A DNA stretch of 64,000 bases from a virus. Shown one piece after another: positions 4,370 through 45,723 of this stretch. The translations under genes were made by a program, and so were the position numbers. The stretch is taken from positions 32,001-96,000 of IMG/VR virus record IMGVR_UViG_3300027970_000001; one strand, written 5' to 3'. Each line of letters starts with the position of its first letter. Position 1 is the first letter of the stretch. The notes beneath the pieces are model-generated. The model was not told where the DNA came from, made no database searches, and was given only the letters and a program-made list of their open reading frames with translations.

Positions 4370-5326
4370 ATGTCAGCCGCACCGCCCATCCATCCGAACA
4401 GCGCTCGCCTAGTCAGCCGCATGGGCATTCGTCCAGGCCGGACCACCGGAAGTCCTCGCATGCACGCGGGCATCGACGTTGGCTCGACGACTCCCGGCGC
4501 TCCGGTGATGTCGATGTCCAATGGCGTGGTCGAACGGGTTGGCAACAACGCGAGCGTCAACGACCCCCTACGTGGCTATGGCGATGCGGTCGTCATCAAG
4601 TCCGACGGCGAGGACCGCTGGGTTCTCTACGCGCACATGTCGAACCCGCGCGTTCGCACGGGCGAGCGCGTTCAGGCTGGGCAGGTCATCGGCAACGTGT
4701 CGAACACGACGAACGGCCAGTTCAGCCCACTGCCCGGAGAGTCCCTGGCGCAGTTCAGGGCGCGCAAGACTGCCGAGGGCGTTGCTCCGCGCGTGATGGT
4801 TCCTCACCTTCACATCGAGGTGCGCGGGCCCCGCCGCGACGGCACCTCGCCCTTCCTGCCGCTGCCGACGGCGTATCCGCAGACCGTGGCTCAGGCGGTG
4901 TACAACGTGAACCCGCAGGAGTGGATGGCCAGCAAGGGCATCACCTTCGGCGCCCGCGGTGCCACCGTGATTGCCCCCGGCTCTGCTGCCGCGCGTAACC
5001 AGGGCACCTGGAATCGTGGCGTTGCTGGCCTTGGCATGACCACCGCTCAGGCGAACGCTGCGATGGGCTGGACGCCTGCCAAGCTCAAGGCGTACTGGGA
5101 CGCGAAGGCCAACGCCTGCCAGTACATGGCGGACGAGGGAAACTGCTTGGCTCAGGTGGCGCAGCACGTCCCGGTGACGCTGGGCGGCATGGGCCAGTAC
5201 GAACCGGTTCGGTTCGAGCGCGACATCCGGTTCGGCCTGACTCCTCTTCAGTGGGGCCTTGTCGCCGCGACCGGCGTTGCGGCGCTCGGCTCTGTCGCCC
5301 TTCTCATTCGTCGCCGGAGGCGCTGA
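4370..5326 (+). CDS. M23 peptidase with C-terminal membrane anchor and Arg tail
   Basis: HAGID, LYAHM and PHLHIE M23 zinc motifs; ends WGLVAATGVAALGSVALLIRRRRR. Confidence 0.85.
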   Translation: MSAAPPIHPNSARLVSRMGIRPGRTTGSPRMHAGIDVGSTTPGAPVMSMSNGVVERVGNNASVNDPLRGYGDAVVIKSDGEDRWVLYAHMSNPRVRTGERVQAGQVIGNVSNTTNGQFSPLPGESLAQFRARKTAEGVAPRVMVPHLHIEVRGPRRDGTSPFLPLPTAYPQTVAQAVYNVNPQEWMASKGITFGARGATVIAPGSAAARNQGTWNRGVAGLGMTTAQANAAMGWTPAKLKAYWDAKANACQYMADEGNCLAQVAQHVPVTLGGMGQYEPVRFERDIRFGLTPLQWGLVAATGVAALGSVALLIRRRRR

Positions 5327-6957
5327 TGTACGCGGTCATTCCGAATCCTCCGAACGACCGGCTGAAGTACATCGCCAAGACGTACGAGAGGCAGCCTTGG
5401 ATCGTGATGGACATGATCGACATCATGTCCAACACGGTGGGCGAAGGGTACTGGTTCGACTTCTTCCGCGGCGGAGACGTGATCTCGGCGCCGCTGAAGA
5501 AGGCGCTCAGCATGCTGACCTGGTCTGACGACCAGAGCGTCGGCAAGCAATCCGTCGAGGGCAGGGCCACGATCTCGGATGTTCGCAAGAACGAGATCAT
5601 GCAGGCGGCCAGGAACACCGAGCTTGCCAAAGAGCTTGTCGAACGAATGTCCGAGTGGGACGATTTCAAGGCGCCAAGCGTCGCCGACAAGGCCTATTCG
5701 TGGATGGCCACGCAGCTCGCCAAGCTGTTCAAGGCTGGCGACTTGGATGCCTACACGGACGCGGTGCAGCAGTTCAAGGCGCGTGGCTCGGCCATCGGCG
5801 CGTGGGTGCAGGAGACCGGGCCCAGCCTGACCCAGATGACCTACGGCCAGGTCATAGACGCTGTCGATGAGTTCCAGCCTTCCACCGATACGCCTCCGAC
5901 TCAGTACGAGGCTGTCTACACGTTCCCCGACAAGTGGACCGTACAGAAGCTCCCTGGCGACTACTGCGAAGAAGAGGCGGATGCGATGCAGCACTGCGGC
6001 ACCGCAGAGCGCCGCGGTTCTGTCCTCTACTCGATCCGAGACCCGAAGGGCTTCCCCCACGTCACAGTCGAGTACCACCCGAAGACCAAGGACGTTGTCC
6101 AGGTCAGGGGCAAGCAGAATCAGCCTGCGATTGCGAAGTACCAGAAGTACGCGGACGAGTTCTTGGCGACGCTGCCGAGGCTGCCGAAGCACGTCGAAGC
6201 GCTTATGAAGGTGATCAGAGAAAGCCCGTACGACGACGGCCAAGAGTACGATGTTGAACTCGCCCTGGAGTGGGCAAACGCTGGCTTCAACGCGTCTGAG
6301 CTTTCCGACTGGCTGGACGCGGGTCTTGAAGTGGGACGATCTGACGTGGCAGAGGTTCTTGCGTCGGAAGACGTCTCCCCGGCAGAGTTTACGACCTTCC
6401 CCTACCCGGTGCTTGAGCTGATCCAATACGACAGCGGCGGGTTCGACACGGACCTGATCGGCATTGCCCGCCTGTATGTCGCGATGGCAGGACGCATGCC
6501 GGTTCGTCGTCAAACTGAGTTTGAGTTTGCTGTCCAAAAGAAGCAGCCCCTCCCGCCTGGGAGGTTCAAAGGCACAGAGGGGCTTGCTCAGATGCTCAAG
6601 GATGACCGCCAGCGTCTTCTTGAGGCGCAGGACTGGGTCGACGCTGGGAGGCGCGCGAAGATCTACGCGGAGCCTGGCGCGATGGCTGGCTGGTGGTCTC
6701 GCGGGTTCACTCTGCGTGAGCTTGAACGGTGGAGCGAGGAAGGCATCACCGACAGCCGGGTCGCCGAGGCTCTCGTCAGTTTCGGGATCGGCGCTCATGA
6801 CCTGGAAGATCTGAACGTGGGCGTCAGATCGATGGGCGGTCCGAAGGCAGACGACGTCCAGGGCATCGTTGCCGCCGTGGAGAAGAAGAGGCTCAGCGCC
6901 AACCGCTCCAGGCGCCGAACGTCAGTCCGCGTTGCTAGGAAGACCTCTCGGCGGTAG
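5326..6957 (+). CDS. PcfJ-like domain protein (paralogue family), tagged at both ends
   Basis: WTVQKL..EEEADAMQHCG..LYSIRDPKGFPHVTVE; starts MYAVIPNPP; ends LSANRSRRRTSVRVARKTSRR. Confidence 0.7.
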   Translation: MYAVIPNPPNDRLKYIAKTYERQPWIVMDMIDIMSNTVGEGYWFDFFRGGDVISAPLKKALSMLTWSDDQSVGKQSVEGRATISDVRKNEIMQAARNTELAKELVERMSEWDDFKAPSVADKAYSWMATQLAKLFKAGDLDAYTDAVQQFKARGSAIGAWVQETGPSLTQMTYGQVIDAVDEFQPSTDTPPTQYEAVYTFPDKWTVQKLPGDYCEEEADAMQHCGTAERRGSVLYSIRDPKGFPHVTVEYHPKTKDVVQVRGKQNQPAIAKYQKYADEFLATLPRLPKHVEALMKVIRESPYDDGQEYDVELALEWANAGFNASELSDWLDAGLEVGRSDVAEVLASEDVSPAEFTTFPYPVLELIQYDSGGFDTDLIGIARLYVAMAGRMPVRRQTEFEFAVQKKQPLPPGRFKGTEGLAQMLKDDRQRLLEAQDWVDAGRRAKIYAEPGAMAGWWSRGFTLRELERWSEEGITDSRVAEALVSFGIGAHDLEDLNVGVRSMGGPKADDVQGIVAAVEKKRLSANRSRRRTSVRVARKTSRR

Positions 6958-6967
6958 GGTGGTAACG

Positions 6968-7360
6968 ATGGATCGCAAGAAGCTCTGGGCAGAAGACTTC
7001 GAGGGCAATCGCCTTAGCGGCGAGGACATGGAAGCCGACCTGACCTTCGAGGACATGGACAATGTCAACACGAAGGCAGTCAAGAGCGGCATGATCTTGC
7101 GGACCAACTGCCCGCAGTGCGGCAAGCAGGTCAAGGAGCTGGTGAACTGGGCAGAGATTGCCTGCTGGTTCCTCGGCAAGCCCGTCGCCGGGTGTGCTGC
7201 CCGTCGCGATGGCATGCACGTCGTGCTCGCGTGCCGGTGCGGCAAGCCCTCCGAGATGTTCTTCACCTGGACGGAGATCCGGGGATTTGTCGACCAGGGC
7301 GTCGGCGGCGGGTCCCTCAAGCCTCAGATTTATCAGGCGGCGGGCCTCACGGCCGTCTGA
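6968..7360 (+). CDS. Hypothetical zinc-binding protein
   Basis: CPQC and CRC motifs; GC3-typical frame. Confidence 0.55.
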   Translation: MDRKKLWAEDFEGNRLSGEDMEADLTFEDMDNVNTKAVKSGMILRTNCPQCGKQVKELVNWAEIACWFLGKPVAGCAARRDGMHVVLACRCGKPSEMFFTWTEIRGFVDQGVGGGSLKPQIYQAAGLTAV

Positions 7361-7803: not shown

Positions 7804-7804
7804 C

Positions 7805-8278: not shown

Positions 8279-8366
8279 CGTCGGCGCCACCATAGCACGG
8301 ACGCAGGAAGCGCTTGCGTACATTCGACAGACTCTGCTAGGTTCGGCGCCTCATCCAAGGAGGGGT

Positions 8367-8681: not shown

Positions 8682-8683
8682 AC

Positions 8684-9289
8684 GTGAAACTGGTGTGGCT
8701 GGACATCGAAACAAGCGGCTTGGACGAGCGCAACGGCCTCATCCTTGAGGTTGCCGTCGCGCTGACCGACGACGCGTCTCTCAGCATCGAGCACGAGCGG
8801 AACTGGGTCGTTCATTGGGACGACATCACCCTCGACTACAAGCTCGGCGGATGGGCTCGGCATCAGCATGGGCAAAGCGGCTTGCTCGATGCGGTGAGGC
8901 TGTCGACGACGGGCATGTGGCCGGTTCGTCAAGAACTCGCAGCCTTCATCGCCCAGCATGTGAAGGAAGGGGACGGTGTCCTGGCGGGCAACAGCGTCGG
9001 TACGTTCGACCGCGTATGGCTCAGGTACCACGCCCCAGAGGTGGTGGAGCGCCTCCACTACCGCGTGTTCGATGTATCCTCACTTCGGATGCAGATGCAG
9101 CTTTGGGCTCCCACGTCACGCGCCGGAGACCTCGCCGCCGAGCGCAGCGAAAGCGGCCATACGCGGCCTCATCGCGCCATGGACGACTTGAGGGAGACGA
9201 TCGAAGAGGCTCGCGTCTACCGCGAGTTCATACGCCAAGCCGCGCTCGCGCCTTCGGTTTTGACGCAAACCACGCGACGCCAACAATGA
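8684..9289 (+). CDS. orn: Oligoribonuclease (DEDDh exonuclease)
   Basis: LVWLDIETSGLD, LAGNSV..DR, HYRVFDVSSL and HRAMDD match the Orn family. Confidence 0.85.
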   Translation: MKLVWLDIETSGLDERNGLILEVAVALTDDASLSIEHERNWVVHWDDITLDYKLGGWARHQHGQSGLLDAVRLSTTGMWPVRQELAAFIAQHVKEGDGVLAGNSVGTFDRVWLRYHAPEVVERLHYRVFDVSSLRMQMQLWAPTSRAGDLAAERSESGHTRPHRAMDDLRETIEEARVYREFIRQAALAPSVLTQTTRRQQ

Positions 9290-9857
9290 GGGCGACGCCG
9301 GCCGCTGACAGGCCGATGACCAGCGGAAGAGGCATCGAACCCTGCGGCCGAGGCGCCCTGTTGGTCAGGACGGACGTCGCGATGGCCTCTCCCCAGGGAC
9401 GCCCGCCTTCGCCAGGAAGGTGAGCCCGGTACGAGTCCCTCGGGATGGTGAGCGGCGTGGTTGGATAGGCGTCGATCCACTTGTCGCCGAATACGGACCG
9501 ATTGGTTTCGCGAATGGAAGCGCCACGGCTCTGTAGCGGCTCTTCTGGGTACCTGGGCGGCCCGCTCATCCAGACCGTCTTGCCGCTGGCGGCGTCCTTC
9601 ATGCGGCGCAGCGCGTCGGGAAGACGCCCGCCCGAGTCGTTGCTGCCGAAGATGAGGATGACGGCGTCCGGCGCGAAGGAGCGCAGGGCCCCCGTGTACT
9701 CCGACCAGAGCGAGTCGGTCGTCGTGTAGTCGATGGCTCCCTTGCCCTGGTGGGCGATGCGCTGAACCTGGTGCCCTGCCGACTCCAGCTTGCGCTGGGC
9801 GTACTGGCCAGGGGTGCCCTGCGACTGACTGTCGCCGACGATGAGGTACTTCGCCAT
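9228..9857 (-). CDS. SGNH/GDSL hydrolase with C-terminal membrane anchor
   Basis: IVGDS, FGSND and D.YRAH blocks; C-terminal hydrophobic helix then SKPKARAR. Confidence 0.8.
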   Translation of the reverse strand: MAKYLIVGDSQSQGTPGQYAQRKLESAGHQVQRIAHQGKGAIDYTTTDSLWSEYTGALRSFAPDAVILIFGSNDSGGRLPDALRRMKDAASGKTVWMSGPPRYPEEPLQSRGASIRETNRSVFGDKWIDAYPTTPLTIPRDSYRAHLPGEGGRPWGEAIATSVLTNRAPRPQGSMPLPLVIGLSAAGVALIVGVAWFASKPKARARLGV

Positions 9858-9859
9858 GC

Positions 9860-10084: not shown

Positions 10085-10087
10085 CTG

Positions 10088-11469: not shown

Positions 11470-12963
11470 CTACTGGGCGAGCCGCTTGGGACGGACGGGC
11501 TTGCCGCCGCATCCAATGCACTGGATGTCGAGCTTACCGTACTCGATAGGATCTCCAAAGATCAGCTCGGCAATAACGTCGGCGCGACGCTCGACGCCAT
11601 CTGGAAGCTTTTGACCAAACAGCTTTTCCAGGTGCTTCTTGCCGTACCTGAAGTCAACCGCGTGCCCGAACTCGTGGCGCATCAGGCCGCGGATGTAGGC
11701 CACGGGCTGGCCTTCAATCTTCGCTGCGAACGCGATGACGATCGGATCACCGTCCATGCAGTACCCGAACTGCCGCTCGGACCCGGTCCCGTTGTCCGCT
11801 GCGGCCTTCTCGTCGTGATGCAGCTCGCAGGTGCCAAAGTCCCCGAACGCCTGCTCCACCACGTCAAAGCACTCGTCGAAGATCTTGGTCGACTTCGGTA
11901 GCGCCGTGCCCGGGTTGCTGGCCATCTCCACGCTGATGGGCAACGCCCCGCCGCTCTGGCTGCCGTGTCCAAAATCGAACATGACCGCGCGTCCGTCAAG
12001 CGCGACCCCCATGTTGCGAAGGTGAACATCGCGAACCACGAATCCCTTGTCGGAGAGCTTCCTCAGGCCAGCGAAAATGTCAGCCATGTACCGCTCCCCC
12101 ACCTTGCTGTGGCGACCTTCCTTGAGCCGGACCGTGTAAAGGTCGTCAAGCTCCTCGGCTGTCATGGGCTGGGAGCTGTGCTCGATGGCCGTGAAGTCCG
12201 CCTCCTCTCGGAAGTTTCTGCAAATTTGAGCGATGGTCTCCCGAATCAGCTTGTTGTTGAGCTTCTCAGACGGCGGCATGGACGGTTCCGGTATGCTCGG
12301 GTGCTTCTTGTCGAACGGGTCAACAAACTCGGTGACGATTGCGTAGAGCGACCGGATCGAGTCCCCGTGCATGCTGCCCGGGAACTCTTCCCTGACAACT
12401 GTGCCGGGCAGCTTCCAGACCTCAAACACTTCGACAAGACCAGGCGACCTTCCCATCCGGCGAACAGCCTCGGCTGCCAAGCCATCATCCCGGTCGTCGG
12501 TCACCTTGAGGACGCGCCCGTCATCCAGCCGGAACGCATGAGCGTAAGCCCCCGCCCCGATGGTTCGCTTCTCAAGCTCGTCTGCTGTCACGCGCTTGAG
12601 CCCGATGCGCCTGGTGAAGTTGGGCACCTCGCGCAGCCGGTCGACCACATCGTCGAGGAACGGGCGGTTGGGCGTGAGGCCGGCTGCCGCGTACATCTGC
12701 TGAGGTCCGAGCGACACGATCTTGGGGTTTGGAGCGAGCCCCGCCTTCGCGCGCTCCTCCATCTTCATGAGGCGCGCGTAGTAGTCGGGGAACTCGCGCA
12801 GATGGTCCAGGGCAATCCGGCCAGCCTGCATCAGGTCGGACGTGTGCTCCTGCTCGGTCTCAACGCCGAGGCGGAACTCGCCCAAGTCGAACCCCGCCCC
12901 GACCTGTCCGAGAGACGCAAGGATGCGCCTTGCCTGATCAAGTCCAACAGACTGCTTGCCCAT
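11470..12963 (-). CDS. Multidomain protein: DUF5661-like + kinase-like + HExxH zincin
   Basis: GVETEQEH..IALDHLREFPDYY; IGAGAY..VLKVT..RDVHLRN..FDFG; MRHEFGHAVD. Confidence 0.75.
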   Translation of the reverse strand: MGKQSVGLDQARRILASLGQVGAGFDLGEFRLGVETEQEHTSDLMQAGRIALDHLREFPDYYARLMKMEERAKAGLAPNPKIVSLGPQQMYAAAGLTPNRPFLDDVVDRLREVPNFTRRIGLKRVTADELEKRTIGAGAYAHAFRLDDGRVLKVTDDRDDGLAAEAVRRMGRSPGLVEVFEVWKLPGTVVREEFPGSMHGDSIRSLYAIVTEFVDPFDKKHPSIPEPSMPPSEKLNNKLIRETIAQICRNFREEADFTAIEHSSQPMTAEELDDLYTVRLKEGRHSKVGERYMADIFAGLRKLSDKGFVVRDVHLRNMGVALDGRAVMFDFGHGSQSGGALPISVEMASNPGTALPKSTKIFDECFDVVEQAFGDFGTCELHHDEKAAADNGTGSERQFGYCMDGDPIVIAFAAKIEGQPVAYIRGLMRHEFGHAVDFRYGKKHLEKLFGQKLPDGVERRADVIAELIFGDPIEYGKLDIQCIGCGGKPVRPKRLAQ

Positions 12964-14514: not shown

Positions 14515-15276
14515 ATGATGCCGTACGTTTCGACCATCACTCCCCTGGACCTACGTGGCATGGGGCTCGGCACCGAGGCGGCGCGCCCCACCGACGAGGA
14601 AATCGCCCGAGGTCGCCTGGACGCTCAGATTTCCCGCGAGTCCGGCGTGCCGGTGCCGTCGCTGCGAGCGATCCGATCCGTAGAGAGCGGCGGCAACCCG
14701 GCGGCGGTGCGATTCGAGACGCGGGTCTTCAGGAACCGAACCGGCCAGACCGTTGAAGGACACGACCGCGCGGCGTTCCAACGCGCGTATGCGATCAATC
14801 CCCTGGAAGCCGTCAACTCGACGTCTTGGGGATGGTTCCAGGTGATGGGGTTCCACGGCTTCCCCGAGATGTTCGGCGGCCCTGGGCAGGCCGTCCGCGC
14901 GTTCGACGCAAACCCCGAAGAGGTCGGGATGCGCCTGTTTAAGCGGTGGATGGACAGTCCACGCCACGCCGCAGCCAAGCTCGCCGCGCGTACGCTCAAC
15001 TTCGCTCAGTTCGCCAGGTTCTACAACGGATGCGGCGACTCGTGCGAACGATACGCGAGCCGCATGCAGCAGAACTACGACCGCGCGTTGCCTGAGTGGC
15101 GACGGGTGGAACCGTACGTCGGCGGCGGTGGCACGCCACAGGTGTGGCCGAAGTGGTCCTATTGGGCCATCGCTGGCGGCAGCGTCGCTGGGGCCTTGGG
15201 ACTCGTCGGCGGCGCGGCTTACCTGCTGCGCCCGAAGAAGAAGCGCCCCGTCTCGGCTAACAGGAGGCTGCGGTGA
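14515..15276 (+). CDS. N-acetylmuramidase (DUF3380-like) with C-terminal membrane anchor
   Basis: AIRSVESGG, VRFE and STSWGWFQVMGF motifs; C-terminal helix then PKKKRPVSANRRLR. Confidence 0.85.
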   Translation: MMPYVSTITPLDLRGMGLGTEAARPTDEEIARGRLDAQISRESGVPVPSLRAIRSVESGGNPAAVRFETRVFRNRTGQTVEGHDRAAFQRAYAINPLEAVNSTSWGWFQVMGFHGFPEMFGGPGQAVRAFDANPEEVGMRLFKRWMDSPRHAAAKLAARTLNFAQFARFYNGCGDSCERYASRMQQNYDRALPEWRRVEPYVGGGGTPQVWPKWSYWAIAGGSVAGALGLVGGAAYLLRPKKKRPVSANRRLR

Positions 15277-17361: not shown

Positions 17362-18417
17362 TCAGTCCCGCTCTGCCTCATCCGTCGCGATGAGGCTCGC
17401 CAGGTTCCGCACGTCGGCCAGCTTGCCCTCAAGAGAAGGCGCGGGGCCCATCAGCTTGCCGAGGTAGATGGCCGTTGTGTTCGGGTTGGCGTGGCCGAGG
17501 AACGCCTGGATGTCCTGAAGGCGGGCACCGGCCTTGTTCAGGTCGCGCGCTGCCATGTGCCGAAGCCCGTGGACCTTCAACGGCTTCCACTCAACCCCTG
17601 CCGCTTTTGCGCGCCTCTTCAAGATGACCTGAGCCATCCTCGGTGAGAGCGGACAGTCGGGCGTCTCACCCATCATCCTTGCGTTTGGGTCGATGCGGGT
17701 GAACACCCCCTGCTCGGGCCTGAGCGTCGAAAGCCTGCCGCTCGCGACCCAGTACGCCTTGAGCGCCGAGTAGCAGATGTCAGGCAGCTCGAACGTCTGA
17801 AGCTTGTTTCCCTTGGTCTTCACCGTGTATGAGCGAGGCTTTGCACCCAGGGCCAGGTCTCTGACGCGCATGCCCGCTACCTCCATCTTTCGTCGCCCCG
17901 TAAAGGCGTAGAAGAGGAGAAGCGCGCGGTCCCGCATGCCCCTCGGGTCCATCGGGATCGAATCAAGAATCGTCTTAAAGGTCTGCCACTCAACCGGAAC
18001 TGACCTGGCGTACGGAGTCGGGCGCACGTCGCTCCGCGATACCGGCCTGAAGGGGTTGCTCTTCACAAGCCCCTCGCCCGTGGCGTCGGACGGCTGCATC
18101 AGAAAATCGAACAGCGCCGTCATCACATCGAGCCTGTGGGCGACCGTGGCGTCGCTCTTGCCGAACTCGATCAACCGGCTTTTGAAGGCCGCGGCGTGCA
18201 TGGTCGTGACCTGGTCCGGGGAGAGCCCGCGTGGCCACATGCCGAAAAACTGCCTCACGGCGTTTCGGTAGGTGCGCCTTGTGTTTTCACCCTTTGAAGA
18301 CAGCCACCCGGCAATCGCCATGGCGTACTTCATTCCCTTTTCATGGTCGCCCGCCCCCAGCCTGTAGGCGACCTCGGTCTGGGCTTCGTCACGATCAACG
18401 ATCAATGATGCAGTCAT
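17362..18417 (-). CDS. Tyrosine recombinase (XerC/D-integrase family)
   Basis: RDRALL..TGRRKMEV (R), KTKGNK (K), VHGLRH (HxxR), LGHANPNTTAIY (H, Y). Confidence 0.93.
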   Translation of the reverse strand: MTASLIVDRDEAQTEVAYRLGAGDHEKGMKYAMAIAGWLSSKGENTRRTYRNAVRQFFGMWPRGLSPDQVTTMHAAAFKSRLIEFGKSDATVAHRLDVMTALFDFLMQPSDATGEGLVKSNPFRPVSRSDVRPTPYARSVPVEWQTFKTILDSIPMDPRGMRDRALLLFYAFTGRRKMEVAGMRVRDLALGAKPRSYTVKTKGNKLQTFELPDICYSALKAYWVASGRLSTLRPEQGVFTRIDPNARMMGETPDCPLSPRMAQVILKRRAKAAGVEWKPLKVHGLRHMAARDLNKAGARLQDIQAFLGHANPNTTAIYLGKLMGPAPSLEGKLADVRNLASLIATDEAERD

Positions 18418-19112: not shown

Positions 19113-19577
19113 ATGGACCCCTCCGACGAGAAGGACTTGTACTTCTACTTTGGCCAGTTTTGGCCCGTCGCCGCCGTCGGCGTGATCATCTATCTTGGCG
19201 GCGAGGCCGCCAAGAAGGTGGTTCACATCTGGGTGCCGCAGGGCACCGAGACCAGCAAACAGCCCTTCTGGTACAAGCTATGGTACGCCACGATTGACTG
19301 GCATCCGATTCTCGTCGGCGGCCTGCTCGGCGCCATCCCATGGCCCGTGCCCACCTTCGTGATGCACTGGTGGGTTCGGGTGCTGTGGTTTGCGTTCGTG
19401 GGGGCGTGCTCGGGGCAGATCTACCGCTCGATCAAGAAGAGCTTCGACATGCTCCCCGAGCTTGCGCGCAAGAAGGCGGGGCTCCCAGAGCAAGCCCCGT
19501 CTGTGCGGCCGGAGAGCGACGAAGCGACTGCTGTCAGCGACGCGAACGGCGGCGATTCTTCCGCACCCCGAGCTTGA
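19113..19577 (+). CDS. Multi-pass membrane protein (holin-like)
   Basis: Three hydrophobic segments. Confidence 0.55.
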   Translation: MDPSDEKDLYFYFGQFWPVAAVGVIIYLGGEAAKKVVHIWVPQGTETSKQPFWYKLWYATIDWHPILVGGLLGAIPWPVPTFVMHWWVRVLWFAFVGACSGQIYRSIKKSFDMLPELARKKAGLPEQAPSVRPESDEATAVSDANGGDSSAPRA

Positions 19578-19800
19578 GCACCTCCGGTGCCTTCTTGTTC
19601 CACCACCAGAACTGAACACCAAGTAGGCCCACGAGCCCGAAGGTCGCGTACTTCCAGTTCGCGCTGACGGACTCTGACGCCGCATCCCCGAATCCTGCGA
19701 TCGGAATCGACGGCACCGACGCCCCCTGGCCGCAGCCGCAGCCCGACCCGCTCAGCGGGAACCTGTTCGACCTCATCCCTCGCAACGCAATGTACGCCAT
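19534..19800 (-). CDS. Small tail-anchored membrane protein with Arg tail
   Basis: IAGFG motif, TM helix, ends VRKNRRRSRR; TAGAAT 9 nt before ATG. Confidence 0.65.
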   Translation of the reverse strand: MAYIALRGMRSNRFPLSGSGCGCGQGASVPSIPIAGFGDAASESVSANWKYATFGLVGLLGVQFWWWNKKAPEVLKLGVRKNRRRSRR

Positions 19801-20614: not shown

Positions 20615-21184
20615 ATGAACGAAGACACCGAGGCGGTTGCCGAGCACGAGGAAAATCCCGGTGATGACTCGGGCGATGCCCCCATTCCCGTGACCCGCCT
20701 GGAGCCCAGGACGTTCGACCTGTCACGCTTCGAGACGCCCACGGAACGGACGCGCACCATGAGCACCTTCGACGACCGCCCGCAGCACGCCATGGCCCCG
20801 GAAACGCCGGCTCAGTACACGCCGCAGCCCGGAGAGCGCGCTTTCAGGGTCATGCTCGCGTCGGAAGGGGAACCCGGGCAGGTCGTTCTGCGGCACTCAA
20901 GCTGGCTTCCTGCACGCGTGTTTGGACGAGCGGTGGCGGTTCGATACGCCATGTTCGAGGCCAAGCGGTCGCTTGCCGGTCCGCTCCAGGTGCTCATGGA
21001 CGCGTCCGGTCGCGTCATCGGCGTCTACCTTCCGGGCAGCGGCAAGCTCGCTCCTCCTCCTGTTGTGAAGGCCGTGAAGCAGGCTGCCGCTGGTCCCGTC
21101 AAGCGCACCAAGCGGACAAGCCGGTCCGTCACGTCCGAGCGTCCGGCCAAGCGCACGAGCAAGGTGCCCGCCCGTCGTCGATGA
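20615..21184 (+). CDS. Hypothetical protein with KRTS-rich C-terminus
   Basis: Ends KRTKRTSRSVTSERPAKRTSKVPARRR; TAGCCT 9 nt before ATG. Confidence 0.6.
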   Translation: MNEDTEAVAEHEENPGDDSGDAPIPVTRLEPRTFDLSRFETPTERTRTMSTFDDRPQHAMAPETPAQYTPQPGERAFRVMLASEGEPGQVVLRHSSWLPARVFGRAVAVRYAMFEAKRSLAGPLQVLMDASGRVIGVYLPGSGKLAPPPVVKAVKQAAAGPVKRTKRTSRSVTSERPAKRTSKVPARRR

Positions 21185-21228
21185 TCGACTGGCGGAACTA
21201 TCACAACGCGTGGTAGGCTCCGCCAGCT

Positions 21229-21894
21229 ATGCCGATGAAGCACGCGCCTGCATACACGCCTCAGCTATATCTCCCCGGCAGCATGGGGAGGTATCGTACG
21301 TACCCCCGCATGGTGACGACGCCGATTCCGGGGGCTGGGTTCAGCAACGTCGGAAAGCTGGTTTGGGGAGAGCAGGTGCTCGACCTTTCCGGTCGCCATG
21401 GCTTTTACCCTGGCAACTACGAGCGGGTCCCGCTGCGTGGACTGGGCACCGTCGCGTCGCCGTTTGGCGCATCGGTGAGGGTAGTTCCCCCGATCACGGC
21501 CACTCGTGTCGAATGCCGTCGCGTTCCGGCTCCAGAAGGGTGCTACTCGTGCCCGGACGGCTTTGAGCTTAGGCAGTTGACCCCCGGGATGCCCCCGGCG
21601 TGCGTGCGTCCTGGCCAGATGATCGGAGAGGGAGGGTATGCCCCTCCGCCGTCAGATCCTGCCGCAGCGCAGCCGAAGTTCTTCGATGTCGGCAAGGCCA
21701 TCTTCGCCAGCACCCCGGTGCAGAACATCGCTGCGATGGGCCCGATGGGGCAGGAGGCTCTCGTCTCCTACGCCAAGATCACGGCTTTCGGCACCTTTAT
21801 CATCGCCCCGCTGATGGGCGTGGCCGGCTACCTCATCGGCAAGAACAGCAAGAAGATGCAGGCGAATCGCCGCCGCCGCCGGAGCCGTCGATGA
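21229..21894 (+). CDS. Tail-anchored membrane protein with Arg tail
   Basis: LRGLG motif, Cys-rich segment, TM helix, ends MQANRRRRRSRR. Confidence 0.65.
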   Translation: MPMKHAPAYTPQLYLPGSMGRYRTYPRMVTTPIPGAGFSNVGKLVWGEQVLDLSGRHGFYPGNYERVPLRGLGTVASPFGASVRVVPPITATRVECRRVPAPEGCYSCPDGFELRQLTPGMPPACVRPGQMIGEGGYAPPPSDPAAAQPKFFDVGKAIFASTPVQNIAAMGPMGQEALVSYAKITAFGTFIIAPLMGVAGYLIGKNSKKMQANRRRRRSRR

Positions 21895-22259
21895 GCTACA
21901 GCCCCGTCCCTTATCGCCACGCCTCGCTCGGCGCTGGCCCGTCGGCACAGGATACGGGTCAGACCGTCCTGAACGTGGCCAACGTGGTCGCTGGCCTTGT
22001 GCGAGACCCCGAGGGCACCCTCCGTGTCCAGGGCCCGGGGATCGTCAGCGCGGTCGACCGTCATCTTGTCGGTCCCGTCGTCGACTCGGTTGCCCGAGCG
22101 TCTGCTCCCTACGTTCTCCGCTATGTGCTGCCTGCCCTCGGCGTCCTGTATCTCCTATCAGGTGCCGCGGCGTACTTCTCTTTCGAGGTCCTCCGTCAGC
22201 AGGGGGAGCGAAAGATGAGTCCGAACCGGCGCCGCAGGCGGAGGCGCAGGGTGCGATGA
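21891..22259 (+). CDS. Tail-anchored membrane protein with Arg tail
   Basis: ATGA overlap; SLG near the N-terminus; TM helix; ends MSPNRRRRRRRVR. Confidence 0.65.
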   Translation: MSYSPVPYRHASLGAGPSAQDTGQTVLNVANVVAGLVRDPEGTLRVQGPGIVSAVDRHLVGPVVDSVARASAPYVLRYVLPALGVLYLLSGAAAYFSFEVLRQQGERKMSPNRRRRRRRRVR

Positions 22260-22867
22260 GGAAGATCTACAAGACCGACATTTTCGGTGGCCGCATGGAT
22301 TCTCGGCAGTTCAACGCCGGGCGTTCCATGGAAAAGCGTATGTACCAGGAGGGCAAGGTCCTGGGCAACTCGATGGACGCCGAGAAGCAGGCGCCGAGGA
22401 CCTGGATCTTGTGGGCTGATGGCCCGGACCTTCCCGGCGGCCGAGGCAAGCCGATCATCGAGTGCGAGCTGTACGCGGTGCCTCGCGCGAGCGACAGCAA
22501 CGAGACGGTCGGCATGCTGATCGCCCAGTGCCCCGTCTGCTACATGCACCACAAGCAGGACAACTACATCACCGTGCGCGAGGACAACAAGGGCATGTCC
22601 ATCGGCACCGTCGAGTACGGGCGCTTGCCCAAGGGCCACCACCTTCGAGACAACTACGCGCTCGACTGTGAAGCAAAGGGCCGTCAGCCCCGGTCCACCG
22701 ATAAGATCCCGATGATTTCGTCGCCCGAGCGATGGCAGTGCGACTACTGCATGTCATGGTGCGTCCGCGTGACCGACAGCGTCGCGCACACCGACATGCG
22801 AGGCGCAACCCAGATCATCACGGGCGGCAACCGCATCGTTACCCCTGGCTCCTCCGTGGACATGTGA
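22256..22867 (+). CDS. Hypothetical zinc-finger protein
   Basis: CPVC and CDYC pairs; ATGA overlap. Confidence 0.6.
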   Translation: MRKIYKTDIFGGRMDSRQFNAGRSMEKRMYQEGKVLGNSMDAEKQAPRTWILWADGPDLPGGRGKPIIECELYAVPRASDSNETVGMLIAQCPVCYMHHKQDNYITVREDNKGMSIGTVEYGRLPKGHHLRDNYALDCEAKGRQPRSTDKIPMISSPERWQCDYCMSWCVRVTDSVAHTDMRGATQIITGGNRIVTPGSSVDM

Positions 22868-22869: not shown

Positions 22870-23295
22870 ATGGCATATCGAGTCGACCCTCTCGCTTTCG
22901 TGTCTGGCGCGGCCAGCCTTCCAAGGAACAGGGCCATCAGGCCAGACCTTCAGGACCAGTACGCACTGGTGCCCGTGAGCATGCTCGGCGACGAGATGCA
23001 GCCGATTCCTCAGCCCCTTCCGACCCAGCTCGTGCCCGCGAGCAGCGGCAGCATGGCGCTCGTGAAGAAGGTCGTGGCGGTGATCGTGGTCATCGCCATC
23101 TTGGCTGCCATCTACGAGATGTGGCGGCGGATGAGTGGCGCCAAGGACGCGCGCCCTGCCCTGACCGCCAACAAGGCAGCGCGCAAGCTCTCGACGGCTG
23201 CACTTGCAAAGCAGCTTCTTGAGCGCCTTGAAAAGAAGGGGAGCGGCAACCCGACCACTCTCCGCTCGCTCAAGACGTACGCTCGCAAGGCGTGA
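22870..23295 (+). CDS. Single-pass membrane protein
   Basis: MLG motif, VVAVIVVIAILAAIY helix, LTAN then a basic C-domain. Confidence 0.6.
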   Translation: MAYRVDPLAFVSGAASLPRNRAIRPDLQDQYALVPVSMLGDEMQPIPQPLPTQLVPASSGSMALVKKVVAVIVVIAILAAIYEMWRRMSGAKDARPALTANKAARKLSTAALAKQLLERLEKKGSGNPTTLRSLKTYARKA

Positions 23296-23905: not shown

Positions 23906-25249
23906 ATGTCGGAAGAACAGACCGTCGAAACGAATGAGATCGCCTACGAAGACCGGCCGATTCAGGAGGTCGAGTCTCTTCGCGAGACGATCACCAAGTC
24001 GAACTTCGGCGGGTACGCGTACACGGCCGAACCGGCTCCCGGAGCCGACGTCCATGGGATCTGGCACTGCTTCCACACCGACTCGCGCGCCGGATACGCA
24101 GCCCACGCCGTTGCCGCGAGCTGGATGATTCGGGAGGAGATGAAGGCGCCCCTGATGCTCATTCCGCATCGGGTCAAAGACATCGACATCGACAACTTCC
24201 CGGCCGACCGCGACGAGATGCTGCTGCGCTGGCTGTCCAAGTCGCCCGTCGGGTTCCCCGAGATGCTCTTGGTGAGCTTGCCTCCCGAGACGCAGATGTT
24301 CGGCCTTGGCAAGGCGACCGTGTACTACTCGGCATACGAGGCCACCAGGGTCAGCCAGTGGACCGCTGACACCGTCAACAGCAAGGGCATGACGGCCATC
24401 TGGTGCGTCAGCGACTTCGTGAAGAGGGCATTCGAGGCGGGCGGGTGCAACCCGAGCAAGCTCGACGTGGTGCGCCCGATGCTTTGCGGCGGCCCTTGGG
24501 CCATGCCCGAGCAGATGGTCCCGGTGGAGCGCGACGAGTTCGTCTTCGGCACGATGGGGACGTGGCACGAGCGGAAGGGCTTCCCTCACCTCATCCGAGC
24601 GTACTTCTCGCAGTTTCGGCGCGATGAGAATGTCGTCCTCAACATCAGGACGAGCCTGTTCGGGAAGAACAAGACCATCACCGAGTTCACAGACGGCGTC
24701 GTCAAGGAGATCGCCGAAATCGCCAAGGAGTTCGGCGATGACGACTACCCGCGCAGCAAGAAGATGCCCCGCGTGAGGCTTCAGACGGGAACCGACCTGT
24801 CCGATCAGGAAGTCATCGACTGGCTCGCGTCGCTCGACGGGTACGTTCAGCCGAGCTTTGGAGAGGGCCTCGGGATTCCGGCCGTCTGGGCGAAGGCTGT
24901 TGGTTGCCCGCTGGTTTGCACCGACTTTGGCGCGCTGGGTGATTTCGCGGCCGAACTTGAGCGGGAGACAGACTCCGGCACCATCGACGCCATCATCAAG
25001 CACAAGCTCGTGCCGGTCCCCCAGGGGCAGCTCGTCGTCAGCCCGATGTTCCACAAGAAGGCCGAGTGGGGAGACTACGACCCGAAGGATTTCGGAGCGG
25101 CCATGCGGACAGTCTTCGAGCGCGGTCGCAAGAAGGACATTCATGGAGCGGTTGCCACGCGCCGGCTGTTCGGTGCGGAGGCCACGGTGCCGGTCATGGC
25201 AGAGGCCATCAAGCGCAGGACCGGCGTGTCTGAATGGGGCACTCCGTGA
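23906..25249 (+). CDS. Glycosyltransferase (GT-B/GT4-like)
   Basis: FGTMGTWHERKG and YVQPSFGEGLGIPAV..A.G.P signature. Confidence 0.85.
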   Translation: MSEEQTVETNEIAYEDRPIQEVESLRETITKSNFGGYAYTAEPAPGADVHGIWHCFHTDSRAGYAAHAVAASWMIREEMKAPLMLIPHRVKDIDIDNFPADRDEMLLRWLSKSPVGFPEMLLVSLPPETQMFGLGKATVYYSAYEATRVSQWTADTVNSKGMTAIWCVSDFVKRAFEAGGCNPSKLDVVRPMLCGGPWAMPEQMVPVERDEFVFGTMGTWHERKGFPHLIRAYFSQFRRDENVVLNIRTSLFGKNKTITEFTDGVVKEIAEIAKEFGDDDYPRSKKMPRVRLQTGTDLSDQEVIDWLASLDGYVQPSFGEGLGIPAVWAKAVGCPLVCTDFGALGDFAAELERETDSGTIDAIIKHKLVPVPQGQLVVSPMFHKKAEWGDYDPKDFGAAMRTVFERGRKKDIHGAVATRRLFGAEATVPVMAEAIKRRTGVSEWGTP

Positions 25250-26349
25250 AGCTCGACTTCGTTGGGCACTTCGGCACGACGCTGTCGTTCGCCAGGTTGA
25301 GCGCTGAGATCTGCCGCGCCCTGCGTGCAGACGGCAAGCTCGGCAGGGTTACCAACCTCGATGACGAGTGGCACGAGGCCAACATGGACCTCTGCGACGA
25401 CACGGCACCGACCGGAACCCACTGCTTCATCGCCACGGAGCCAAGGCACTACTTCGAGTCGTACCTGGCTGCATACGAAGCGCGCCGCATCGCCCTGTAT
25501 TCCTCTCCGAACACCAACACGGTCGGCAAGGAGCACGCGCAGCTCGTCTCCAAGGTTGGCAAGGTCTTCGTTCCAAGCGGTTGGTGCGAGGAGAGCATCC
25601 GCAACGGATGCGAGAGCAACGGCGCCCCGAAGCCCGACAACATCACGGTCGTCCCGCTCGGGGTGGCAGACGGGTTCTCGTGGAGCGACGATCGCTACGC
25701 CAGGCTCTCCGAGCGAGCCAAGGACAACAAGCCGTGGACGGCGGTACACTTGTCGTCTGACCATGCGTGGCCGGGCCGGAAGGGCACCGGAGAGCTTCTC
25801 TCTGCCTGGGCCATGCTGCCCCGAGACAAAGAGCGGCAGCTCATTGTCCACGCCCACAGGGCCATCTACGAAGACGTCTTCTACAAGTGCGCCGACCTTG
25901 GCATCTCCGACCAGGTCGAGATCTTGATGCCACCTCTGCGAGGCTCTTCGGACGCAGAGCTTCTGGAGGTCATGGAGCAGGCTGACACGATCATCCTGCC
26001 AACCCGCTGCGAGGGCTTCGGGATGATTGTGCTGAGCGCCCTGTGCCTCGGCATCCCGACGATTGCCACGTGTGAAACGGCGCATGCGGAGTTCATGGGC
26101 TCGTTCGGAGGGTGGCTCGCTGCCCCGGCATCCCCTGGTGGCGAGATGGCCTACGAGGACGGGTCCGTGCCCGAGATCAACATCGGAGCGCTTGCCGACG
26201 CGATGCTCGTGGCCGAGGTGCCGGAGTCGAGGCTTCGGCTCCTGCGAAGCGCGAAGGTCACAAAAGACATCTCCTCGTCGTGGAAATGGTCGCACGTCGC
26301 GGAGCGTTGGGTTTCTGCTGTTTGCGGATGGATGGAGGAGACGTCATGA
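25234..26349 (+). CDS. Glycosyltransferase (GT-B/GT4-like)
   Basis: GRKGT and IILPTRCEGFGMIVLSALCLGIPTI signature. Confidence 0.85.
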   Translation: MGHSVKLDFVGHFGTTLSFARLSAEICRALRADGKLGRVTNLDDEWHEANMDLCDDTAPTGTHCFIATEPRHYFESYLAAYEARRIALYSSPNTNTVGKEHAQLVSKVGKVFVPSGWCEESIRNGCESNGAPKPDNITVVPLGVADGFSWSDDRYARLSERAKDNKPWTAVHLSSDHAWPGRKGTGELLSAWAMLPRDKERQLIVHAHRAIYEDVFYKCADLGISDQVEILMPPLRGSSDAELLEVMEQADTIILPTRCEGFGMIVLSALCLGIPTIATCETAHAEFMGSFGGWLAAPASPGGEMAYEDGSVPEINIGALADAMLVAEVPESRLRLLRSAKVTKDISSSWKWSHVAERWVSAVCGWMEETS

Positions 26350-29536: not shown

Positions 29537-30310
29537 CTACCGGCGGTACGGGGCGGTCCACAGCATGTGGGACAGGTACCCGCTGATCACGCCACCGATG
29601 ATGCCAATCACCGGCTGCCTGGAGGCGCCGCCGATCAGGCCGCCAACGGCCGCTCCGACGACCGACGCCTGGAGGCCCGACCGGAGCGCCAGGTTGACGT
29701 TCTCGGACAGCATCTGCCCCGCCTGGGTCTCGGAGCACGCGAACTCGGTGAGAGCGCCTCCCATGCCGCGCAGGCTGTAGTTGAAGCGGACGTCAAGCTC
29801 TCCGCTGGGCTTCTGGCTAAGCGTGAAGACCTCGGTGCCGGGCACGAACACGGGGCCAGACGACGGCAGGAAGGCGCGGCAGACGGCGCCGTAGGGCAGC
29901 CGCTGGATCCTACGCTTCGCGGTGCGCATCGCCTCGCGCATGCCCGTGACGACCACGCCTCCGCCGGTCGGGTTCTGCCGCCAGTCGCTGCACGCGATGA
30001 TGTAGTTCTGGTCTTCTAGTCGGCGAACCGACTGCCCGATCGTGAGACCTTCGCTCATGCTGTTGCTCCGGCCACGAGCATGCCCTGAGGAGCTTGCAGC
30101 GTCCAGCCCCATGATTCCTCGGTATGGGTCGCGCGCGTAGCGCATGATGGCGGGCGCTCCTGTCTCGTAGCTGCCGTGCTCGATGTACGGAGCAATCGGC
30201 AGCCCGCGCTCAACGAGCGGCTGGAGGCTAGGAAGCCCCTCTCGGCCAGCCGGCAGCGACGAGAACGACACTTGCCCCGGAATCCATTTCGCCTGACCAA
30301 GCCCCCGCAT
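29537..30310 (-). CDS. Membrane protein with MRGLG/LRGMG motifs
   Basis: Starts MRGLGQ; internal LRGMGG; C-terminal Gly-zipper helices; ends APYRR. Confidence 0.6.
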   Translation of the reverse strand: MRGLGQAKWIPGQVSFSSLPAGREGLPSLQPLVERGLPIAPYIEHGSYETGAPAIMRYARDPYRGIMGLDAASSSGHARGRSNSMSEGLTIGQSVRRLEDQNYIIACSDWRQNPTGGGVVVTGMREAMRTAKRRIQRLPYGAVCRAFLPSSGPVFVPGTEVFTLSQKPSGELDVRFNYSLRGMGGALTEFACSETQAGQMLSENVNLALRSGLQASVVGAAVGGLIGGASRQPVIGIIGGVISGYLSHMLWTAPYRR

Positions 30311-41335: not shown

Positions 41336-41355
41336 GTTGTCCCCCACCTGTCCGT

Positions 41356-42439: not shown

Positions 42440-42474
42440 CCCGTCGCTTCGCCCGACATACAACGAGGTCAGCC

Positions 42475-43575: not shown

Positions 43576-43587
43576 GATGGAGATGAC

Positions 43588-44007: not shown

Positions 44008-44151
44008 GGACCCCGGCCAAGTTTGTCTTGCCATCTTGATCGAGGGGTGATCTAACGTGGACGTGCGGCGCGACACGACGGCAGAGGCAACGATCGTTGC
44101 CAAGTACGCTACGATGGAAGGCCTTCTCGACGAGCGAGGGCGCCGAGTTCG

Positions 44152-44523: not shown

Positions 44524-44934
44524 TCAGCGCAGCAGCCTTTCGAGCGCGACCATAGGCTCCAGGATGCCTGGAACGAGGTCGAACTTGACGGCTTGCTTGA
44601 TGGGCACCCATCGCATGTCGCTGCTCTCCCACGTCATCTTCAGATCGCCGGTCCATCGGCGGCTGACGTAGAGGTGCAAGGTGCCCCAGTCGTGGTGAGT
44701 CACCGAGAGGATGGAAAGCCCGCGCGGCGTGACCGACACCTCCTCTTGCGCTTCCCTTACGGCTGCTTCGATGGGCGTCTCGCCGGGGTCGACCGTGCCA
44801 CCTGGCAGGTTCCACTTGCCTGGCATCCACGGCGCGGTCATCCCCCGCTTTAGCAGGAGGACCTCGTTTCTGTCGTTGACGAGGAACACGGCTGCGCCGC
44901 CGCCGACCGCGTTGCGAGTCACCAGCGGTTGCAA
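44524..44934 (-). CDS. NUDIX hydrolase
   Basis: WNLPGGTVDPGETPIEAAVREAQEE Nudix box. Confidence 0.92.
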   Translation of the reverse strand: MQPLVTRNAVGGGAAVFLVNDRNEVLLLKRGMTAPWMPGKWNLPGGTVDPGETPIEAAVREAQEEVSVTPRGLSILSVTHHDWGTLHLYVSRRWTGDLKMTWESSDMRWVPIKQAVKFDLVPGILEPMVALERLLR

Positions 44935-44988
44935 TGGCTTACCTGTGTTTTCAGGGGCATTCCGCGGTCGCCATTGCGTGGCTTCAAA

Positions 44989-45231
44989 TCAGCGGATGAC
45001 GCGCAGCTTCCGGCCGTCCGCCCCACGGACCATGCTGTCGGGGGCGAGCTTCCAGTAGTTGCAGCAGCCGTAGGTCTTCACGGGCACCTTGAGGCCCATG
45101 CAGAAGCCGTCCTTGTCGCCAAGGTACTGGAGCTTCGAGCAAGTGCCGCAGAAGTATCCGGGGCCCGCGCTCGCGAAGCCCTCGACCTGTACGTATCCGG
45201 CGCCGTCCTTGATCTGCTTTTCGGTCTGCAT
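44989..45231 (-). CDS. Small Cys-rich (HiPIP-like pattern) protein
   Basis: CGTC...GFC...V..YGCCNYW. Confidence 0.5.
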   Translation of the reverse strand: MQTEKQIKDGAGYVQVEGFASAGPGYFCGTCSKLQYLGDKDGFCMGLKVPVKTYGCCNYWKLAPDSMVRGADGRKLRVIR

Positions 45232-45247
45232 GGGCCCCCGCGTTGGC

Positions 45248-45517
45248 TCAGCGACGCCGACGGCGTCCGTGTTTGTTGAGGCGCAGCGACAGGCCGGCGC
45301 CGCCGGGGCCGACGTTGAGGAACGAGCCGCCCATGCCTCCGCCGCCGCCGCCGAAGCTCAGGATGGGGAACTTGTACGCCAGGTACCCTAGGCCGCCACC
45401 GATGGCCAGAGCGCCAAGGCCAATTGCCATGGCCGTGCTGTCAGACATCGGCGTCGAAGTGGTGGTCGTGGTGGTCGAAGTGAACTGGCCCAGGCTGGGC
45501 GAGTTGAAGTAGCTCAC
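45248..45517 (-). CDS. Small tail-anchored membrane protein
   Basis: SLGQ, Thr run, TM helix, ends LRLNKHGRRRRR. Confidence 0.6.
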   Translation of the reverse strand: MSYFNSPSLGQFTSTTTTTTSTPMSDSTAMAIGLGALAIGGGLGYLAYKFPILSFGGGGGGMGGSFLNVGPGGAGLSLRLNKHGRRRRR

Positions 45518-45723
45518 GAGTGCCTCCGATGGCGACGGCGGTTCTTCTTGAAGATGTGCTCGGTCAGGAGCCGATGCTGGCCCATGACGTTGCCGACAAT
45601 CGCCATGACGATGCCGCCGATGACGCCGCCGAACAGCACCGTCTTGGCTCCACCTGACATCTCAGGGGCGGGCGCAGCGGCGGGCGGGGCAGTGGCAGGC
45701 GCGACCTGGCCGAAACCGTTCAT
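45514..45723 (-). CDS. Small tail-anchored membrane protein
   Basis: MNGFGQ, MSGGA, TM helix, ends FKKNRRRHRRHS. Confidence 0.6.
   Translation of the reverse strand: MNGFGQVAPATAPPAAAPAPEMSGGAKTVLFGGVIGGIVMAIVGNVMGQHRLLTEHIFKKNRRRHRRHS

Follow-up and report, generated by a model that had tools for sequence, protein, structure and literature searches.

A Gly-(Leu/Met/Phe)-Gly signal on tail-anchored proteins of large freshwater bacterial viruses and its possible role as a cutting code in particle assembly

A short glycine motif on tail-anchored proteins

A window of 64,000 nt from an uncultured freshwater bacterial virus (IMGVR_UViG_3300027970_000001, positions 32,001-96,000) was analyzed for a short motif, (M/L/I/V)-x-G-(L/M/F)-G, that recurs on its tail-anchored membrane proteins. 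Judged from the sequences, this motif appears to be a functional short linear signal with the core Gly-(Leu/Met/Phe)-Gly, and, once start codons are corrected, it is found mainly at the end of an N-terminal Met-Ser-Tyr leader. The preferred reading, held tentatively and at slightly less than an even chance, is that the motif might serve as a leader or linker cutting code that is read by a transglutaminase-fold enzyme during particle assembly. The host of the motif is an uncultured lineage of large freshwater bacterial viruses (at least 64 kb in the window).

The motif was counted outside the helix in a tail-anchored set that was defined automatically, and the expectation was taken from 2000 residue shuffles. 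Tail-anchored proteins of the window carry 5 motifs against 0.31 expected, a count reached in 0 of 2000 shuffles, while the non-membrane proteins carry 6 against 2.5 expected, which was graded as about chance level. Since the pattern had been derived from the window, it was tested unchanged on an independent genome, the syntenic relative G002, which is an IMG/VR contig of 171,466 bp and 100% complete according to CheckV. In G002 the full motif occurs 7 times on tail-anchored proteins (0.63 expected; 0 of 2000 shuffles reach this count) and 7 times on soluble proteins (5.4 expected), and the Gly-(Leu/Met/Phe)-Gly core occurs 16 times on tail-anchored/membrane proteins against 3.3 expected and 31 times on soluble proteins against 24.8 expected, the latter not being significant. 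In addition, a Met-Ser/Ala/Thr-Tyr start is present in 18 of 81 membrane proteins and 4 of 179 soluble proteins of G002 (p=4e-7). An earlier note on this DNA, in which the motif was first pointed out, had proposed a comparison of transmembrane-tailed with other open reading frames, and in that comparison the motif is enriched on tail-anchored proteins only, both in the window and in G002. The pattern by itself is non-diagnostic, as 7 soluble proteins carry it too, at about chance level.

When 25 N-terminal copies were aligned on the core, Gly was followed by Leu (16), Met (5) or Phe (4) and then by Gly, and a hydrophobic Met, Leu, Tyr or Ile stood two places ahead of the core (Met, Leu or Ile in 13/25 leaders). 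The leader form consists of Met-Ser/Ala/Thr-Tyr, 0-30 residues, Gly-Leu-Gly and then often Gln or Asp. In the leaders of the window and G002 the residue after the core is Gln in 8/25 and Asp in 5/25, while in the wider family it is varied, with Asp, Ala, Val, Ser, Gly and Leu being common, and this variability fits the specificity of a protease that reads the non-prime side. Regarding position, 25 copies on tail-anchored proteins are distributed as 14 within 45 residues of the N-terminus, 7 at most 30 residues before the helix and 4 elsewhere; the linker copies are located 13-25 residues ahead of the C-terminal helix or at module junctions. Outside leader and anchor the carriers are unrelated, with 0 similar pairs among the 10 carriers of the window and one pair among 21 in G002. 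The Ser of the Met-Ser-Tyr start is encoded by AGC, TCG and TCC alike, so selection acts on the protein, and an explanation of this start at the level of the mRNA was ruled out by the varied codons. A lipobox was rejected for want of a Cys at the right place, and a Sec, Tat or pilin signal was rejected for want of a hydrophobic core.

Motif-bearing genes of the window

All motifs listed in the earlier note are found at their genes. The carriers have no N-terminal hydrophobic segment, in agreement with its statement that they lack a signal peptide, and the C-terminal helix that it ascribed to them is present in all except the protein starting at 22870, the helix of which lies at mid-length. Its remark that a basic tail mostly follows hydrophobic-x-x-Asn holds as well, an Arg/Lys tail being so placed in 7/10 carriers. 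The leader context had been seen in part only, and the end of the Met-Ser-Tyr leader has now become the main position.

The motif occurs on two wall-degrading enzymes. A tail-anchored M23 peptidase (4370-5326, + strand; Pfam M23, E=1e-16) contains VAGLG at residues 218-222 (nt 5021-5035) and LGGMG at residues 271-275 (nt 5180-5194), which bracket a Cys-containing module between the M23 catalytic domain and the C-terminal helix with its RRRRR tail. A tail-anchored N-acetylmuramidase (14515-15276, + strand; Pfam Muramidase), which ends in a C-terminal helix and an ANRRLR tail, has the leader MMPY..LRGMGLG, with LRGMG at residues 13-17 (nt 14551-14565). The tail-anchored GDSL-type lipase/acylhydrolase (9228-9857, - strand; Pfam Lipase_GDSL_2) is motif-free. 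It ends in a helix and a basic tail and forms part of this group of anchored enzymes; in a virus that putatively contains a membrane, it may act on lipid of the host or of the virus.

The other carriers are mostly small. An 88-aa tail-anchored protein (19534-19800, - strand) has a MAY leader (MAY..IAGFGD; IAGFG at residues 34-38, nt 19687-19701), a GCGCG stretch and a KNRRRSRR tail, and G2_56591 and G2_152489 are homologues of its leader. A 221-aa tail-anchored protein (21229-21894, + strand) consists of a conserved ~70-aa N-terminal domain, then VPLRGLG (LRGLG at residues 69-73, nt 21433-21447), and ends in an ANRRRRRSRR tail. At 21868, within the poly-Arg tail codons of this gene, 3 bases are missing in one lake metagenome contig, so the number of tail arginines differs between strains. 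The 122-aa tail-anchored protein that follows (21891-22259, + strand), homologous to the C-terminal half of G2_53665, has a MSY leader with a degenerate ASLGAG (MSY..SLGAG) and a PNRRRRRRRR tail, and a 141-aa membrane protein (22870-23295, + strand) has a MAY start, SMLGD, a mid-protein helix and a basic C-terminal region, while its homologue G2_52733 starts with MSY. A 257-aa protein (29537-30310, - strand) carries MRGLGQ at its very start (MRGLG at residues 1-5, nt 30296-30310) and a second copy, LRGMG, at residues 180-184 (nt 29759-29773), ~20 aa ahead of Gly-zipper helices. Finally, an 89-aa tail-anchored protein (45248-45517, - strand) has the leader MSYFNSPSLGQ and a LRLNKHGRRRRR tail, its AIGLG lying inside the helix, and a 69-aa tail-anchored protein (45514-45723, - strand) starts with MNGFGQVAPAT (MNGFG at residues 1-5, nt 45709-45723, when the ambiguous start codon is placed at 45723 rather than at 45744 or 45774), also contains MSGGA and ends in a KKNRRRHRRHS tail. 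Internal copies are thus carried by the M23 peptidase (two), by the 221-aa protein, after its 70-residue domain, and by the 257-aa protein, ~20 residues ahead of its helices.

Conservation and modularity of the motif

The motif keeps its position among orthologues. MRGLGQAKW of the 257-aa protein aligns with MSYARGLGQAKM, and the orthologue G2_38257 begins with MSYARGLGQ and is 73% identical downstream, while VPLRGLGT of the 221-aa protein aligns with VPLRGLGQ of the orthologue G2_54150. Among 21 tail-anchored homologues of the muramidase, 6 have a leader ending in Gly-Leu-Gly, of the MSY..GLGQ type, and the leaderless ones begin a few residues past the motif position, while the anchor is kept in 21/21; since the leader is present or absent while the anchor stays, it is a dispensable add-on. 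In the M23 orthologues, [Gly/Ser/Ala]-hydrophobic-Gly is located at most 30 residues before a conserved Tyr-Glu-Pro in 21/28, against 12.5 expected, and a Leu-Gly-Gln element is present in 14/28, in an otherwise variable linker.

One Cys-containing module is bracketed by motifs in two contexts. In the window it stands in the order M23, VAGLG, module, LGGMG and anchor, and in G002 (G2_53665) the same module stands between MSYAGLG and FAGLG and is followed by the anchor. Moreover, the start of the protein at 45514 coincides with the second junction of G2_53665, with MNGFG-QVAPAT in the former and FAGLG-QVAPAT in the latter (internal GLGQVAPAT).

The motif is also associated with a core protein of G002 (158770-161544), which has 924 residues, is Arg-rich (25% Arg+Lys) and contains three tandem GEYVDQPMSGFG units. 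By analogy, these units would parallel the adenovirus protease sites on DNA-condensing core proteins (PMC4246237). In this protein, protamine-like repeats and hydrophobic helices accompany the GEYVDQPMSGFG repeats. A 245-residue paralogue (G002 161688-162425) repeats its C-terminal part and has one GEYVDQPMSGFG unit, and both proteins end in ..ARHLF.GM.

A candidate enzyme linked to the leader genes

The candidate enzyme is a 198-residue protein encoded at 143545-144141 of G002, where it precedes an array of ~16 leader genes (144-154 kb). It appears to be a transglutaminase-fold Cys-His-Asp enzyme that is weakly LapG-like. Its family includes 725 representative clusters at E<=0.001, in which D93, E98, D118, D120, G134, H157 and D174 are invariant and C119 is conserved in at least 90%. 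The protein is modeled with a transglutaminase-like fold at a predicted local distance difference test (pLDDT) of 91, and the structural matches of the model include the putative protease 3kd4 (Z 12.8), transglutaminases including factor XIII and transglutaminases 2 and 3 (Z 10-11), PNGase (Z 9) and LapG (Z 8.5-8.7). LapG is also the best sequence-profile match in the PDB, a weak one (E=0.009, 18.6 bits), over RYxxD..GDC(D/E)D..H..D. The Pfam family of LapG, PF06035, has no match at E<=10 in G002 or in G001, a second relative that is 76% complete (relatives span 106-171 kb), and PF01841 has no match in G002, its score in G001 (19 bits) staying below threshold. The G002 enzyme has no N-terminal hydrophobic segment and hence no signal peptide.

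Linkage of this gene to the leader genes is tight. Across 23 IMG/VR contigs (25-182 kb) that contain the enzyme gene, 27 leader-plus-helix proteins (Met-Ser/Ala/Thr-Tyr ... Gly leader and a helix) are encoded downstream on the same strand and 0 in 230 kb upstream; near the enzyme gene there are 0.61 leader proteins per 10 kb, compared with 0.01 at control phage loci. The same order, enzyme and then leader genes, is found in G001; the contigs of three distant enzyme homologues are too short to show neighbours. A predicted complex between the enzyme and residues 1-40 of a leader protein scored 0.04, which weighs neither way, and tblastn searches with the enzyme and with the capsid candidate described below found nothing among deposited phages. 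The earlier note had also suggested a second, Gly-specific protease: a candidate reader linked to leader genes is now available in relatives, but neither adenain (C5) nor Ulp (C48) was found in the window or the two relatives.

G002 also encodes a SprT-like HExxH metalloprotease (170286-171233, equal to L073:10286-11233; Pfam E=6e-14) at the end of its structural module. SprT enzymes are DNA-activated, and this one could be the reader of the hydrophobic-x-x-Asn motif next to the Arg tracts.

Proposed cutting code

The proposed mechanism is that the enzyme would read hydrophobic-x-Gly-hydrophobic-Gly as the non-prime side of its site and cleave at this place while the particle is assembled. Cutting would strip the leaders from membrane proteins and might release domains such as the M23 peptidase head from their anchors or change their shape, in a manner akin to the maturation of pVI, pVII and pTP by the adenovirus protease. 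In relatives, the enzyme gene stands first in the operon of leader-bearing proteins. A cutting code is favoured because the leader is dispensable, because the motifs are located at module junctions or before anchors and because the residue after the motif is variable; it is also favoured by the tight linkage to a Cys-His-Asp enzyme, the nearest characterised relative of which is a protease that removes an N-terminal module.

Several points weigh against a cutting code. The candidate enzyme is absent from the window and was studied in relatives. The transglutaminase fold also occurs in cross-linkers, amidases and cell-wall hydrolases, and a shared late operon does not prove a relation of enzyme and substrate. 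Multivalent binding would explain the tandem repeats of the core protein no less well than cutting, and the tag is almost confined to membrane proteins, unlike a general prohead-protease signal. Moreover, the background of [Gly/Ser/Ala]-hydrophobic-Gly in Gly-rich linkers is high, as seen in the 12.5 of 28 M23 orthologues expected against the 21 seen.

Comparison with known processing systems

The adenovirus protease (AVP, adenain, MEROPS C5) cuts (M/I/L)XGX-G and (M/I/L)XGG-X sites on pIIIa, pVI, pVII, pVIII, pX and pTP (PMC4246237). The viral motif has the same hydrophobic-x-Gly-x-Gly form, and LRGMG, LRGLG, MRGLG, MNGFG, IAGFG, LGGMG and MSGGA fit the adenovirus consensus (PMC4246237). In both systems several unrelated particle proteins carry sites at their termini, Arg-rich core proteins that condense DNA have them as well, and a virus-encoded cysteine enzyme is involved, here as a candidate. 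The systems differ in that C5/clan CE is undetected here, the candidate enzyme is predicted to be transglutaminase-fold, the sites are carried by tail-anchored membrane proteins, in a bacterial virus, and cutting is predicted only. In this reading, the resemblance to adenain sites would be convergent and the enzyme not an adenain.

LapG (BTLCP, MEROPS C93; PDB 4FGO, 4U65) cuts the adhesin LapA at a di-alanine site and thereby takes off its N-terminal retention module. The candidate enzyme has its best sequence-profile match in LapG and is predicted to share its fold, and LapG also cuts beside small residues and releases an N-terminal piece. However, PF06035 misses the viral enzyme, LapG is periplasmic while the viral enzyme has no signal peptide, and the viral site would be Gly-hydrophobic-Gly instead of Ala-Ala, on many substrates instead of one adhesin.

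In phage T4, internal proteins and Alt carry a capsid targeting sequence that is removed by the prohead protease gp21. The likeness lies in a short common N-terminal leader on unrelated particle proteins, with targeting and then cutting proposed, but T4 is a tailed phage, its leaders belong to soluble internal proteins and have Leu/Ile-x-Glu at their end, and its protease is a serine enzyme of the herpesvirus-assemblin type. The double-glycine leaders cut by C39 peptidases in the export of bacteriocins and quorum peptides are also N-terminal, end in Gly and are read by a papain-like cysteine peptidase. In contrast, the residue before the last Gly is here Leu, Met or Phe and not Gly, Ala or Ser, the carriers are large membrane proteins and not exported peptides, and no C39 domain was found in the window, nor with PF03412 in G002 or G001.

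Alternative explanations

The main alternative, less probable than the cutting code, is an uncut docking or assembly signal, in which the tail-anchored and core proteins would be recruited through binding of their motifs to a capsid protein, a scaffold or a protein that shapes the membrane. The near restriction of the tag to membrane proteins agrees with docking, the three or four tandem GEYVDQPMSGFG units of the G002 core protein are typical of multivalent binding motifs, and the motif-flanked shuffled modules could be explained merely by recombination at conserved coding sequence. A 2019 review of membrane-containing phages is also without the words protease or proteolytic (PMC6356626). On the other hand, leaderless orthologues keep enzyme and anchor, and docking is therefore non-obligatory for those proteins, while the tight linkage of a conserved Cys-His-Asp enzyme to the leader genes and the variable residue after the motif, like that of protease sites, also speak against docking.

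It is improbable that the transglutaminase-fold enzyme is a cross-linker that joins the Gln after Gly-Leu-Gly to a Lys of another particle protein and thereby staples membrane proteins to the shell. The likeness of its model to factor XIII and to transglutaminases 2 and 3 (Z 10-11) would suit this role, as would the Gln in 8/25 leaders of the window and G002 and in 14/28 M23 orthologues. However, the role is weak because the Gln is not conserved in the wider family, and the best sequence relative of the enzyme is the protease LapG.

An adenain-type (clan CE) protease, as put forward in the earlier note, is very improbable as the reader of the sites. The form of the sites bears out the likeness that had been noticed, as LRGMG, LRGLG, MRGLG and MNGFG fit (M/I/L)XGX-G exactly and adenovirus sites include IVGL-G, of pVI, and QRGF-G (PMC4246237). 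Nevertheless, adenain (PF00770) and Ulp-type (PF02902) profiles had no match in six-frame searches of the complete relative G002 and the 76%-complete G001 (E<=1 and E<=10), and there is no clan CE family among the called proteins of the window.

Equally hard to credit is a C-terminal sorting signal of the PEP-CTERM, GlyGly-CTERM or LPXTG kind that would be processed by a sortase-like enzyme of the host. Motif, helix and Arg cluster do follow one another in the M23 peptidase, the 257-aa protein and several G002 proteins, but N-terminal signal peptides are absent, 14/25 copies are N-terminal, the motif is either N-terminal or 13-25 residues from the helix and not directly before it, and helix and Arg cluster are the sole shared part. 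The near-chance counts on soluble proteins (6 for 2.5 expected in the window and 7 for 5.4 expected in G002) would agree with mere chance, or with the composition of Gly-rich proteins at high GC, but this explanation is scarcely tenable in view of the tail-anchored counts that 0 of 2000 shuffles reach in two genomes, the position-specific conservation in orthologues, the strand- and side-specific distribution of 27 against 0 on 23 contigs and the contradicting test on the independent genome G002.

Virion type

The anchored M23 peptidase, muramidase and lipase, together with many small membrane proteins, would fit a membrane-containing tailless particle. The membrane-containing virion suggested in the earlier note stands in part: an internal membrane would suit this protein set, but a jelly-roll capsid and an FtsK-type ATPase were not demonstrated. 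The same split came out of its proposed check for a jelly-roll major capsid protein and packaging ATPase versus HK97 capsid, portal and terminase, which was run on relatives and in which head-tail genes were not found either.

Pfam scans of the window's called proteins yielded no family of terminases, portals, capsid or tail proteins, packaging ATPases or cysteine proteases, and Pfam over the called proteins of G002 gave no terminase, portal, HK97 capsid or tail family (in one set, among 25 of 40 families listed). Six-frame profile searches with PF03237 and PF05065 were negative in G002 and likewise in G001. A PHROG 'portal protein', phrog_15528, in the structural module of G002 was rejected, as it maps to a NUDIX gene and matches all 14 control genomes. 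For FtsK-type ATPases, PF01580 had no match in G002 or G001; Pox_A32 was not searched, and divergent ATPases could escape.

The capsid candidate, encoded at 162554-163429 of G002, is the most conserved structural protein of the lineage, with 66-99% identity over 120 clusters. Its model has a pLDDT of 48, and the best fold matches are jelly-roll capsid proteins, with Z only about 4-5 (top 5.2), values that weigh neither for nor against a jelly roll. The nearest named clusters in the ESM Atlas are PM2 P2 and PRD1 P3, at 0.75, which is below any trust level, and PF25513 and PF18628 have no match. Relatives of the capsid candidate (L102-L109) are found in bins labelled Planctomycetota, Phycisphaeraceae, Pirellulales and Lentisphaeraceae in 4/8 cases and Deltaproteobacteria, Acidobacteriota and Pseudomonadota in the remaining ones, the binning of viral contigs being unreliable as host evidence.

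Phages with an internal membrane, such as PRD1 and other Tectiviridae, PM2, P23-77 and SSIP-1, share with this lineage the many small membrane proteins, the particle-type wall-degrading enzymes and, as judged from the complete relative G002, the lack of head-tail genes. The lineage differs from them in a genome several times larger, in the jelly-roll capsid and FtsK-type ATPase that were not demonstrated, in an enzyme and a capsid candidate without similarity to any deposited phage and in its leader and putative protease system, none having been described for those phages (PMC6356626).

Significance

A leader-and-protease maturation system is undescribed for membrane-containing bacterial viruses, and the 2019 review of the field is without proteolysis (PMC6356626). 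A literature search found no description of such a leader, nor of large tailless phages that carry one. The portable tag shared by unrelated tail-anchored proteins would offer a sequence rule that predicts the particle-building genes of dark-matter viruses, and it would point to a testable pair of enzyme and substrate, that is, the 198-residue Cys-His-Asp enzyme and the leaders of 5-40 residues. If the cutting is confirmed, adenovirus maturation would have a striking convergent counterpart, in a lineage that exceeds every known tailless phage several times in size. A wider picture is conceivable, and at present more doubtful than the cutting code itself, in which widespread, large (~100-180 kb), tailless and probably membrane-containing bacterial viruses would have a convergent adenovirus-like maturation, with a LapG-like protease that strips leaders from dozens of tail-anchored proteins, frees wall-degrading enzymes and processes the Arg-rich core protein. 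Near-identical DNA is present in lake and freshwater metagenomes of several studies from 2019-2024, and as the virus recurs in such samples, material for proteomics exists.

Gene content of the window and its relatives

Because the window has 63% G+C, genes were called with a codon-usage model trained on its long open frames, which gave ~93 genes, and Pfam scans were run on all called proteins. In addition to the M23 peptidase, the N-acetylmuramidase and the GDSL lipase, the scans recognised an amidase, a dual-specificity phosphatase, two glycosyltransferases, a methyltransferase, a tyrosine integrase (17362-18417), a UvrD helicase, GP88, PcfJ, an ART-PolyVal polyvalent protein, Tad2, endonuclease VII, NUDIX and a DNA methylase. 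Synteny with G002 extends to about 45 genes of the window, the homologues being 27-73% identical. Bases 1-30 of G002 are repeated at 171332-171361, 134 bases before the contig end, which is consistent with a circular or terminally redundant genome; IMG/VR classes the contig as linear.

No relative was found when the 543-aa protein at 5326-6957 was used as query against viral contigs, and blastn of window 23906-26349 against deposited phages gave nothing. Contigs from freshwater-sediment RNA libraries (two runs) cover parts of window 20920-22831; as DNA carry-over cannot be excluded for such contigs, this coverage hints at transcription at best.

A tRNA-Leu gene (anticodon TAG) is located at 51308-51389 (- strand), between GP88-like and DUF192-like genes. 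A DUF5661 protein with a weak HEIGH-type zincin match is encoded at 11470-12963 (- strand) and also at L062:4464-6080, and it adjoins muramidase, integrase and GP88 genes in a 166-kb JGI contig and in G002 as well. The polyvalent protein encoded at 56235-58196 (- strand) contains GNAT and two ART-PolyVal stretches and is of a type common among the effectors that mobile elements inject or package. Moreover, a Tad2-like anti-Thoeris domain (Pfam) lies within window 33203-64000 and an Acb2/Tad1 hairpin domain is encoded in G002, and these are counter-defence genes, as in ordinary phages.

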